From assembly GCF_000185985.2 (NCBI RefSeq), contig NC_014909.2, positions 390,001-422,000 of the forward strand: DNA of 32,000 nucleotides, read 5' to 3'. Shown here in pieces: positions 30,262 to 32,000 of this stretch (position 1 is its first letter; each line of letters opens with the position of its first letter). Both the position numbers and the translations under genes were made by a program. Under the pieces are notes generated by a model that was not told the DNA's origin, made no database searches, and was given only the letters and a program-made list of their open reading frames with translations. The DNA comes from Candidatus Saccharimonadota bacterium (lineage in GTDB: Bacteria; Pseudomonadota; Gammaproteobacteria; Enterobacterales; Enterobacteriaceae).

Positions 30262-30324
30262 ATGAAATTTTATATATATTTATATGCTATATTTATGCTT
30301 CCTATGATGAAAATATGTAATGCA
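30262..30324 (+). other. Predicted Sec signal peptide of the invasin-like protein
   Basis: MK n-region, hydrophobic core FYIYLYAIFMLPMM, and a C-N-A cleavage-type c-region followed by NNVN. Confidence 0.6.
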
Positions 30325-32000
30325 AACAACGTCAATGCGCATAATGCTTTTATTAATTCTCTTATACCAATTAGTATAAACAGTGATATAGATCACTTAT
30401 ACAAAAATGAAATTTTATCAAATAAATTTATACGACTAATTAATAATAATAAAGAAGATATCAATCTTAACAACGCCCATAAATTTTATTTATATCGTAT
30501 GTATAAAAATAATATTACCAATACACTCCAATATAATTATAAAGTTTTACCTTTTTTTTACCATTATAAAAATGATAATCAATTTCGAATACAACTTAAA
30601 AATGATTCAATTAACATATTACGTGTTATGCATAAATATTTATGGAATCATATATATGGAACAACATTATCTTTTGTTCAAGCAGGTATAAAAAAAACTG
30701 TTTCTAAAGAAAAAATTGCAATTTTAGGAATCGGAAAAAGACATGTACATAATAATAAACATGTTATAGGATGTAATTCTTTTATTTATTTTCCTATATT
30801 TAATCGACAAACACATCCTTACTTTTTAAATTTAGGAGGAGAATATTGGTATAATAATTTAGTTTGTTTATTTAAGAGCTATTATACTATTAATAGTACC
30901 CCCAACTTTTATAAACCTTTTTGTTTCTACACGTCTTATATATATCCAAAAACCGGATATCAAATATGTATAGAAAATAAACTTCCATATATCTCAGAAC
31001 TAAAAAGCCAAATAAAAATAGAAAAATTTATTTACAGGAAAAAAAATAATAACATATTTGATTGCATCAATAAGCACCATAATCATTGCTTATATATTAA
31101 TTTAATATATACTCCTATTCCCTTATTAGATATTAAAATTGACAATTTATTCATACAAAAAAAATATTATGATACTACTTGCTCTATATCATTAAATTAT
31201 CAATATAATATACCATTTCAACAACACATTAATAATAAACAATATTTGTATAATCAAAGTAAATCAATAATTTCAAATAATTTAAATGCTATTTTAGAAC
31301 CCTTTATACCATCTTCCAAATTGTGTATGATTAATTCAACTAATAATTATGGTATTATTGATTTATCTAAATCTAATCAAGAAATTACTGGATATCCTGG
31401 AGAGATAAAATTAATCAAAATAATTGGAAATAATCATGAATCAAATTTAACATGGGACATGCAAAATTTTTATAATCAAGGGGGTCAAATGTTACATGTA
31501 AAACATGATATGTATGCAATTTCATTTCCTAAAATTCCTTTAGAAAAAGAAGTGTATATTTTATTCTCTAAAAATGAGAATCATAATTGTACAAATAATT
31601 CAATTAATCACATTAAACAAAAAATAAAAATTTTAGTAAATAATTATGCTCAAACAACATTAACCTCTCAATTAAATAATACCTTATTGTTTAACAATGA
31701 TAACATTAGTAATAATCAGTCTACATTATTATCTGATTCTACTAATAATTTAGTAAAATCAGATGAAAACCATGAAATTTACACGAATACAATAACTACT
31801 CATGATAATAATAAAGTTATTAATTATTATTACCCTATTACAGAACAACAAAAAAACCAAGATACTAATGATGTCGATGTTTTACACGATAATCACAATA
31901 CAACAACATCAGAAAATTCACTTAATAAAACAATAGATGGTATTCAAGAAAAATCAAATTCCAATTCTATCTCTTTGTCACCTCCTCCACCACCTCCTAT
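30262..32000 (+). CDS. Intimin/invasin-family inverse autotransporter (type Ve) outer-membrane adhesin, 5' partial (ORF runs off the window edge)
   Basis: I translated this by hand. It is 579 stop-free codons in a genome where random frames close every ~10-15 codons. N-terminal signal peptide MKFYIYLYAIFMLPMMKICNA|NN. Motifs match the intimin/invasin beta-domain as I recall those sequences: ILGIGKRH (LGAGQRF/LGVGIRT), LNLGGEYW (IGGEYW in intimin), IYTPIPLLDIKID (NYTPIPLVTMGID). Downstream first-Ig-domain matches are ITGYPGEIKLIKI (ISGLPGQVYQVNA) and TWD...QGGQ (VWDD...QGGQ). Confidence 0.8.
   Translation, partial: MKFYIYLYAIFMLPMMKICNANNVNAHNAFINSLIPISINSDIDHLYKNEILSNKFIRLINNNKEDINLNNAHKFYLYRMYKNNITNTLQYNYKVLPFFYHYKNDNQFRIQLKNDSINILRVMHKYLWNHIYGTTLSFVQAGIKKTVSKEKIAILGIGKRHVHNNKHVIGCNSFIYFPIFNRQTHPYFLNLGGEYWYNNLVCLFKSYYTINSTPNFYKPFCFYTSYIYPKTGYQICIENKLPYISELKSQIKIEKFIYRKKNNNIFDCINKHHNHCLYINLIYTPIPLLDIKIDNLFIQKKYYDTTCSISLNYQYNIPFQQHINNKQYLYNQSKSIISNNLNAILEPFIPSSKLCMINSTNNYGIIDLSKSNQEITGYPGEIKLIKIIGNNHESNLTWDMQNFYNQGGQMLHVKHDMYAISFPKIPLEKEVYILFSKNENHNCTNNSINHIKQKIKILVNNYAQTTLTSQLNNTLLFNNDNISNNQSTLLSDSTNNLVKSDENHEIYTNTITTHDNNKVINYYYPITEQQKNQDTNDVDVLHDNHNTTTSENSLNKTIDGIQEKSNSNSISLSPPPPPP
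31981..32000 (+). repeat. Poly-proline run (six or more CCN codons) at the window edge within the invasin-like ORF
   Basis: cct cct cca cca cct cct at 31981-31998, preceded by about 100 codons of N/S/T/D/H-rich low-complexity sequence. Confidence 0.85.

Follow-up and report, generated by a model that had tools for sequence, protein, structure and literature searches.

BVAF_377 of Candidatus Blochmanniella vafra: an inverse autotransporter with a single Ig-like domain, a disordered proline-rich stalk and a conserved C-terminal tip that may face the host cytosol

Inverse autotransporters are delivered by type Ve secretion, in which the protein is exported by Sec, the beta-barrel is inserted in a BamA-dependent manner, the passenger is exported as a hairpin, and the membrane-proximal immunoglobulin (Ig) domain folds at the pore. 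The described systems closest to the protein considered here are of this type, intimin of enteropathogenic and enterohaemorrhagic Escherichia coli (EPEC and EHEC) and invasin of Yersinia. A second group of relevance comprises surface proteins of cytosol-dwelling bacteria that present proline-rich, WH2 or CA-like motifs to host actin, namely BimA of Burkholderia (type Vc), IcsA and YapV (type Va), and the WASP mimics RickA and ActA (PMC6555100). The actin-assembling autotransporters in the searchable literature belong to types Va (IcsA, YapV) and Vc (BimA) only, and none is of type Ve (PMC6555100). Here, we focus on an open reading frame (ORF) at the right-hand end of a 32,000-nucleotide stretch of contig NC_014909.2 (positions 390,001 to 422,000; hereafter the window). 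It covers three-quarters, counted from the 5' end, of BVAF_377, an intact type Ve autotransporter gene of Candidatus Blochmanniella vafra str. BVAF, an endosymbiont of carpenter ants. Its product joins a barrel of the intimin and invasin family to a passenger that is organized differently from theirs.

The ORF occupies positions 30262..32000 of the plus strand. Translation confirms the 579 stop-free codons that a reading of the DNA from its letters only (the sequence-only reading) had counted by hand, and the reading frame, closed upstream by a stop at 30253, has its first start codon, an ATG, at 30262. Given the base composition of the window (~25% GC, a stop being expected at 8.7% of codons), the chance of 579 open codons is ~1e-23. 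The translated ORF is 100% identical to the public protein P0001, the product of BVAF_377, and the window end cuts it inside a run of prolines, PPPPPP (aa 574–579). The 3' end of the gene was taken from P0001, not from DNA. This protein runs 170 residues past the window end to a stop, with neither a frameshift nor a stop just beyond, and the scenario of a gene broken immediately outside the window, which the sequence-only reading had named as grounds for calling it a pseudogene, is thus ruled out. The full protein has 749 aa when counted from ATG 30262 and 738 aa from the GenBank start. The 738-aa record bears the NCBI name 'hypothetical protein' and a UniRef name beginning 'Inverse autotr...', and the orthologue in B. 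floridana is named 'putative adhesin'. The gene had been described as unannotated; it is annotated in GenBank as BVAF_377, and the program-made ORF track missed it solely through the window edge. Both the gene and its family assignment are therefore already public, and the headline of the sequence-only reading is not new.

The membership of BVAF_377 in the inverse autotransporters (type Ve) is well supported by sequence profiles and by the predicted fold. The barrel domain (30490..31248, plus strand; ORF aa 77–329) scores 60.2 bits with Pfam IAT_beta (PF11924), whose curated cutoff is 22.3 (E 3.1e-16), and IAT_beta also matches every orthologue tested. When PDB sequences were searched with phmmer, the only matches were the barrels of Yersinia invasin (4e1t, E 2.3e-10) and EHEC intimin (4e1s, E 7.2e-6). 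A model obtained with AlphaFold2 (AF2) from an 18-sequence alignment places the barrel strands at P0001 residues 96–314, equivalent to ORF aa 107–325. The top three PDB matches of this model in Foldseek are again invasin and intimin barrels (E 1.2e-7 to 2e-6; 4e1t at 1.2e-7, 4e1s at 9.6e-7), with target-normalised template modelling (TM) scores of 0.46–0.47 and a model of moderate confidence. The sequence-only reading had proposed such a barrel and suggested that it be checked by profile search and structure prediction. It is borne out by both, with IAT_beta above its curated cutoff at E 3e-16 and 4e1t recovered at E 2e-10 by sequence and E 1e-7 by fold, and the barrel motifs quoted in its favour lie where they were placed (LGIGKRH at aa 155–161, GGEYW at 192–196, YTPIPLL at 283–289). 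The domain order is inverted, a leader and the barrel (aa 77–329) being followed by 420 residues of C-terminal passenger. The post-barrel linker motif NYQ.N.P..Q.I is present and conserved, and PFQQHI is found at aa 318–323. Membership in narrower families of this class, YchO/YchP, Inv and YrIlm, was considered and rejected, as the NCBIfam matches to the barrel are partial and score far below their cutoffs. The best of them, YchO/YchP (NF007556), covers the barrel only (E 2.2e-11) and reaches 43 bits against a family cutoff of 508, so BVAF_377 is not a member.

The first part of the passenger is predicted to be a single Ig-like beta-sandwich (31348..31638, plus strand; ORF aa 363–459, with the motifs EITGYPGEIK, TWD and QGG), as judged from AF2, Foldseek and homology to a module in Sodalis and Photorhabdus proteins described below. 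AF2 gives a compact eight-strand module at P0001 352–448, and when modelled alone it reaches a predicted local distance difference test score (pLDDT) of 79 and a predicted TM score (pTM) of 0.69. Its Foldseek matches are Ig domains of a generic kind (titin M3, palladin, CRTAM, antibody V) at E ~1e-3 and TM 0.45–0.5. In BLASTP against intimin, another check that had been suggested, the alignment carries on through the module into intimin residues 450–552, which we take to be roughly the first Ig domain, D00. No Pfam match to Big_1, Big_2, intimin_C or lectin was obtained, even at E up to 10, and none to LysM. The resemblance of this region to the first Ig-like domain of intimin and invasin, as claimed in the sequence-only reading, hence stands at the level of the fold and of the co-alignment with intimin 450–552, and the motifs on which it leaned are present (ITGYPGE at aa 375–381, TWD at 397–399, QGGQ at 406–409). 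There is one such domain only, and the Pfam Big_1 match that was looked for did not appear. The description of the product as a large surface adhesin like intimin or invasin is overstated, as the protein is without Big_1, an Ig-repeat array or a lectin cap.

Beyond the module, a low-complexity spacer rich in Asn, Ser and Thr begins (31648..31980, plus strand; ORF aa 463–573), which is predicted to be disordered on the basis of AF2 and divergence among orthologues. AF2 assigns no secondary structure to P0001 452–653, where pLDDT is ~30. The Ig-like module is followed by ~200 disordered low-complexity residues, and ~40% of the protein is predicted to be disordered. The window closes on the start of a Pro-rich tract (31981..32000, plus strand; ORF aa 574–579), which reads PPPPPPMPL in the full protein. 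The tract is found in 15/15 Blochmannia orthologues, ~90–175 residues from the C-terminus, and P564, P566 and P567 are almost invariant in the 18-sequence alignment. In the tip, AF2 predicts three helices (P0001 654–662, 672–687 and 693–703). The order of elements is a short helix, an extended basic/hydrophobic segment (LLxLLSIHKKSKFSSIG), the helices EHINKLENSILERKK and SDMEKIFSKLHL, and a Ser/Asp-rich tail. The tail contains Phe or Tyr in 10/15 orthologues and neither in the other 5/15; Trp is absent.

Conservation, expressed as mean pairwise column identity among 15 Blochmannia-type orthologues, is distributed unevenly along the protein. It amounts to 0.39 in the barrel, 0.32 in the linker and module together, 0.20 and 0.15 in the two spacers, and 0.46 in the Pro tract. 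The last block of ~70 residues (P0001 651–722) has an identity of 0.51, the highest in the protein. A peak of conservation in the most distal block argues strongly against decay and identifies this block as the predicted functional tip. Two further statements of the sequence-only reading are upheld by these data. The distal passenger was said to be of low complexity, in line with the predicted disorder (pLDDT ~30) and the spacer identity of 0.15–0.20, and its functional end was placed beyond the window, where the most conserved block indeed lies.

The distribution of the passenger was examined with a profile of this region only (from LNAILEPFIP to the C-terminus, four orthologues), searched with HMMER against 1.84 billion representative proteins. 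It gave 19 matches, 15 of them Blochmannia-type proteins and four of them inverse autotransporters of Sodalis and Photorhabdus. The Blochmannia-type proteins are 600–790 aa long, and in all but P0012 the single matched stretch starts at about residue 312–342. Named among them are Candidatus Blochmannia ocreatus and a Blochmannia metagenome-assembled genome, the others being from Logan assemblies. At least 15 diverged Blochmannia-type lineages thus carry the gene intact. Its position is also maintained. In the window, the gene order ahead of the inverse autotransporter gene (+) is rnt(-), slyA(+), pdxH(+), tyrS(+), nth(-) and fumC(-), with fumC as the divergent upstream neighbour (28728..30131, minus strand; TIGR00979 fumC_II, 693.7 bits). 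The same gene order and the same fumC(-)/autotransporter(+) arrangement are found in B. floridana (L002) and on a 51-kb Logan contig (L001), in both of which a flavoprotein gene, kdsB, a Trm112p-family gene, lpxK and msbA follow downstream. Because the gene order is the same, the three genes are positional orthologues despite being only 30–37% identical; between lineages overall, identity is 27–37%.

The relatives outside Blochmannia come from Sodalis sp. RH14 (P0020, E 8.1e-6), Photorhabdus tasmaniensis (P0021, E 2.7e-4), P. australis and P. cinerea (the remaining two, P0022 and P0023, at 2.8e-4 and 5.3e-4; E-values are for the whole library). With a full-length Blochmannia profile, the Photorhabdus and Sodalis proteins score 155–171 bits against 77–87 bits for intimin, and the alignment reaches the Pro tract for P0020 and P0021. 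The Sodalis and Photorhabdus proteins (WP_413739868.1, WP_387467000.1, WP_434525880.1, WP_166306492.1) have in common with those of Blochmannia the barrel and an Ig-like module of the form GxxGE.K.I...WD..L...GG...L..N.Y...P. Those of Sodalis and P. tasmaniensis also share the succession of spacer, Pro tract, short C-terminal motifs and acidic tail. The Sodalis and Photorhabdus proteins differ in having a lipoprotein-type leader, a normal base composition and ERLEQ coiled-coil spacers. In Sodalis sp. RH14 (CP178739.1), a stretch of ~6.6 kb directly downstream of the autotransporter gene (L004 10062–16655) has no called protein gene and could represent either an rRNA operon or a region left without annotation.

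One of these relatives bears on function. The P. australis cluster also contains a P. asymbiotica member, P0024 (WP_434525880.1), which is encoded at L005 8001–10880 (CP177138.1) and adjoins a type VI secretion system (T6SS) cluster and a two-component system. Its C-terminus consists of three repeats of EGRDALLDAIRKNSK... followed by LESVFKRRFEAIHGRDED...DEEEWDK. Among PDB chains, this region best matches the human N-WASP of 6uhc, an entry for the Arp2/3 complex (E 1.4e-5), across the WH2, connector and acidic-Trp parts, and Pfam WH2 (PF02205) scores 29.2 bits against a cutoff of 23.1. The presence in this inverse autotransporter of a WH2-connector-acidic (VCA) region of the type found in WASP, a host regulator of actin, is thus statistically supported, which makes P0024 a candidate type Ve actin nucleation-promoting factor. 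The three canonical WH2 repeats, the C helix and the DEEEWD tail set it apart from the Blochmannia proteins. In the other relatives, likeness to such motifs was judged by eye: P. tasmaniensis and P. cinerea end in ...DDDDDSGDEWKDE and ...NENDDEWGNE, which are acidic tails of the DEW type, and Sodalis has a 12-Pro tract followed by the motifs ...GLRKV and ...VLKKD. WH2-type motifs erode quickly in this family: the SSEDIDKEQE that flanks the WH2 repeat of P. asymbiotica is also present in P. tasmaniensis, where the canonical residues of the WH2 helix have already been lost. This tempers the negative comparisons of the Blochmannia tip given below.

A disordered stalk with a poly-Pro tract and a conserved helical and acidic tip is the typical form of a cytosolic linear-motif ligand. 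The following mode of action is envisaged for BVAF_377. After export by Sec, the barrel would be inserted into the outer membrane by BamA and would convey the passenger across it with the C-terminus out, as in intimin. The Ig-like module would sit at the barrel mouth, and the disordered stalk would hold the tip at a distance of ~300 residues from the cell. In the bacteriocyte, Blochmannia is not enclosed by a symbiosomal membrane but lies naked in the cytoplasm (PMC3009655). The tip would therefore face the host cytosol for most of the life cycle, and its most probable role would be to bind a cytoplasmic protein of the host as a short-linear-motif ligand. Given the relatives, the actin machinery is the leading candidate partner, with profilin-actin contacted via the Pro tract and a degenerate VCA-like tip contacting G-actin and/or Arp2/3. 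The symbiont could use such a ligand for its positioning, its partitioning or its transfer from cell to cell and into oocytes, as opposed to classical extracellular adhesion by Ig and lectin domains. With the actin and other-partner versions combined, we give a host-cytosol-facing linear-motif ligand, the actin machinery being the leading candidate, a probability of about 0.42. The version specific to actin is a hypothesis that we hold to be doubtful, and it is unlikely that BVAF_377 is a derived descendant of a WASP-mimicking type Ve autotransporter whose tip still recruits actin, profilin or Arp2/3.

The case for actin starts from the order of elements that the Blochmannia proteins share with those of Sodalis and Photorhabdus, namely Ig-like module, spacer, Pro tract, helices and acidic tail. 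A weak similarity of the tip to a VCA is also seen in a shuffle test, in which a hidden Markov model (HMM) was built from VCA sequences and the tips were scored against composition-matched shuffles in 200 replicates. The family mean was 2.75 bits versus 0.84 and lay above all 200 replicates, a weak result given that the 15 sequences are not independent. The alignments of the tips with this HMM recur in one register (MEKIF~LESVF), the similarity again being weak.

A number of observations weigh against an actin-binding tip. In the same shuffle test, only 1/15 tips exceeded the 99th percentile, and the family mean is inflated by relatedness. An hhalign comparison of the tip (15 sequences) with the Sodalis/Photorhabdus VCA gave E 0.13 and a probability of 0.45%. 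The tip profile matches no WASP-family chain in PDB, and none of five C-terminal fragments from Blochmannia gives a Pfam WH2 match at E values up to 10, whereas P0024, the positive control, does. Hallmarks of a VCA are missing, FSSI standing where LKKV is expected and no Trp being found in the acidic tail; so conserved a block would be expected to keep these hallmarks if it still bound actin or Arp2/3. Among the relatives themselves, the C-termini of Sodalis and P. tasmaniensis have no match to a WASP chain, so the VCA is solid in one relative only. The genes of the relatives are also not syntenic with those of Blochmannia, that of Sodalis lying downstream of mobA/mobB and that of P. asymbiotica beside the T6SS cluster, neither of them by fumC. 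Positional orthology with Sodalis and Photorhabdus was rejected on account of these differing neighbourhoods, and vertical descent of the whole passenger is not to be assumed. No actin structures around Blochmannia are reported in PMC3009655. The filing of the Blochmannia tip as a WASP mimic was dropped on the negative hhalign, PDB profile and Pfam WH2 results and the weak shuffle test. As far as sequence comparison goes, the relation between the tip and a VCA is one of architectural analogy on a homologous scaffold, not of demonstrated homology.

The proposal of a cytosol-facing ligand has to be weighed against a more conventional role. BVAF_377 could be a classical adhesin or invasin whose conserved tip binds a host cell-surface receptor during brief extracellular or cell-entry phases, in the manner of invasin and integrin, with the stalk as a spacer only. 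The phases in question would be the exit from midgut bacteriocytes and the entry into oocytes or pupal enterocytes; infection extends to nearly all midgut cells at the pupal stage. Such a role would suit the intimin/invasin barrel family, the 'putative adhesin' annotation in B. floridana and the retention of an intact gene in many lineages of a strongly reduced genome. Moreover, invasion of enterocytes and oocytes by Blochmannia is suspected, through factors as yet unknown (PMC3009655). The adhesin role accords poorly with a passenger that has no Ig-repeat rod, C-type-lectin cap, Big_1/Big_2 or LysM domain, and whose make-up of disorder, poly-Pro and short helices is closer to that of a cytosolic linear-motif ligand than to that of a receptor-binding domain outside the cell. 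In addition, a WASP mimic, which could act only inside the host cytoplasm, is among the nearest relatives of the passenger. A role in adhesion or colonisation, as the sequence-only reading had favoured, is possible, and in its classical form we consider it questionable; a role facing the host cytoplasm is favoured at least as strongly by the passenger architecture and by life in the cytosol.

A cytosol-facing ligand need not have actin as its partner. The tip could instead contact a motor or adaptor, function in autophagy or immune evasion, or tether an organelle, in which case the C-terminal block would be a Blochmannia-specific invention and the link to the VCA would reflect modular swapping of passengers on a barrel and Ig scaffold. 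The block has no significant similarity outside its family in 1.84e9 proteins or in PDB, and the negative hhalign result and the absence of synteny with the outgroup genes point in the same direction, as do the outgroup passengers, which differ from each other past the module (ERLEQ coiled-coil repeats, differing numbers of WH2 motifs). The collinear order of module, spacer, Pro tract, helices and acidic tail in Sodalis and Photorhabdus, together with the weak, register-consistent resemblance to the VCA, is harder to reconcile with an independent origin, and we regard a non-actin partner as rather improbable. Least probable by far is a decaying relic of an ancestral virulence factor, without current function and with a passenger shaped by AT-biased drift: the very fast divergence (27–37% identity between lineages), the AT-driven low-complexity spacers and the GenBank name 'hypothetical protein' would fit it, but the ORFs are intact at 600–790 aa in at least 15 lineages, the genomic position is conserved, a 749-codon frame at ~25% GC is not kept open by chance, and the most conserved part of the protein is the distal 70 aa (0.51 versus 0.15–0.20 in the spacers), the opposite of 3' decay, so that a pseudogene was rejected on the conservation pattern.

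The N-terminus requires a comment on the start codon. The GenBank start of BVAF_377 corresponds to window position 30295 (MLPMMK...), 11 codons downstream of ATG 30262, and the upstream ATG adds MKFYIYLYAIF. A probable Sec signal peptide, MKFYIYLYAIFMLPMMKICNA, is read by inspection at 30262..30324 (plus strand), in agreement with the sequence-only reading and with the leaders of the orthologues; a hydrophobic leader opens all of P0002, P0004 and P0009–P0019. A start at 30295 would take away most of the hydrophobic core of the leader. The deposited start is probably too short, because with the longer form a plausible Sec-type leader, comparable to those of the orthologues, is regained. Conservation is weak in the N-terminal 90 residues (0.18 among the 15 orthologues), and the periplasmic stretch of ~80 aa between leader and barrel is likewise little conserved. 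A promoter scan upstream of the ORF gave 9 matches versus 6.7 +/- 2.6 in shuffles, which is no enrichment, and no terminator was found.

Other features of the window are as follows. The envelope genes lolB, lpp and kdsA, which had been pointed out in the sequence-only reading, are present. A slyA gene of the MarR family (25162–25596, plus strand; NF002926, 229.5 bits) lies 4.7 kb upstream of the autotransporter gene, and a MarR-family gene occupies the same position in B. floridana (L002) and on the Logan contig (L001). The SlyA homologue RovA activates invasin expression in Yersinia, and it may be more than chance that so reduced a genome has kept slyA near a gene of the invasin type. The only RNA gene found in the window (ARAGORN; Rfam at gathering thresholds) is a tRNA-Val (GAC) at 22594–22669 on the minus strand, just upstream of lpp (22171–22407, minus strand). 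The kilobases of lowest GC content, 4001–5000 (0.18) and 8001–9000 (0.19), coincide with ORF-free gaps at 4582–5096 and 7922–8713. These are unusually long spacers for a 722-kb genome and may represent degraded genes or regulatory or RNA elements.

Little is known of how obligate intracellular mutualists with tiny genomes are positioned and partitioned, or of how they reach new host cells and eggs. BVAF_377 is an obvious surface-exposed candidate for such functions, as all lineages sampled have kept the gene intact and in the same place, with selection focused on the outermost tip. The functional inference rests on architecture and on one statistically supported relative. The link to the Photorhabdus VCA leads to a concrete hypothesis of binding to actin, profilin or Arp2/3, and it points to a use of the type Ve scaffold that appears not to have been described. 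If correct, a device for hijacking actin, of the kind that pathogens use, would have been retained and domesticated in an obligate nutritional mutualist, and the Photorhabdus and Sodalis proteins would be the first type Ve autotransporters to act as actin nucleation-promoting factors. Should the actin idea fail, the conserved 70-residue tip would still be a defined bait for a host partner.

In the openly searchable literature (subscription-only papers excluded), no prior description was found of a Blochmannia inverse autotransporter, of a link between Blochmannia and actin or of a type Ve protein with WH2 motifs. A type Ve scaffold with a single Ig domain, a disordered Pro-rich stalk and a constrained tip therefore appears to be undescribed, as does its kinship with a Photorhabdus type Ve protein bearing a bona fide WASP-like VCA. 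With intimin of EPEC/EHEC and invasin of Yersinia, the Blochmannia protein has in common the leader, an IAT_beta-type barrel like those of 4e1t and 4e1s, and a passenger placed C-terminal to the barrel; the first domain after the barrel is also Ig-like and co-aligns with intimin 450–552. It differs from them in having one Ig-like domain, with no Big_1/Big_2 repeats, C-type-lectin-like cap or LysM domain. Instead, ~40% of its length is predicted to be disordered, and it ends in a poly-Pro tract and a short helical and acidic tip. From BimA, IcsA, YapV, RickA and ActA it is distinguished by its secretion class (Ve), by the fact that WH2 and CA motifs are statistically undetected in it, and by the life of its bearer as an obligate mutualist with no known actin phenotype. 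The likeness to this second group is conceptual, and lies in a surface anchor that carries a Pro tract and a succession of helix, extended segment, helix and acidic tail.

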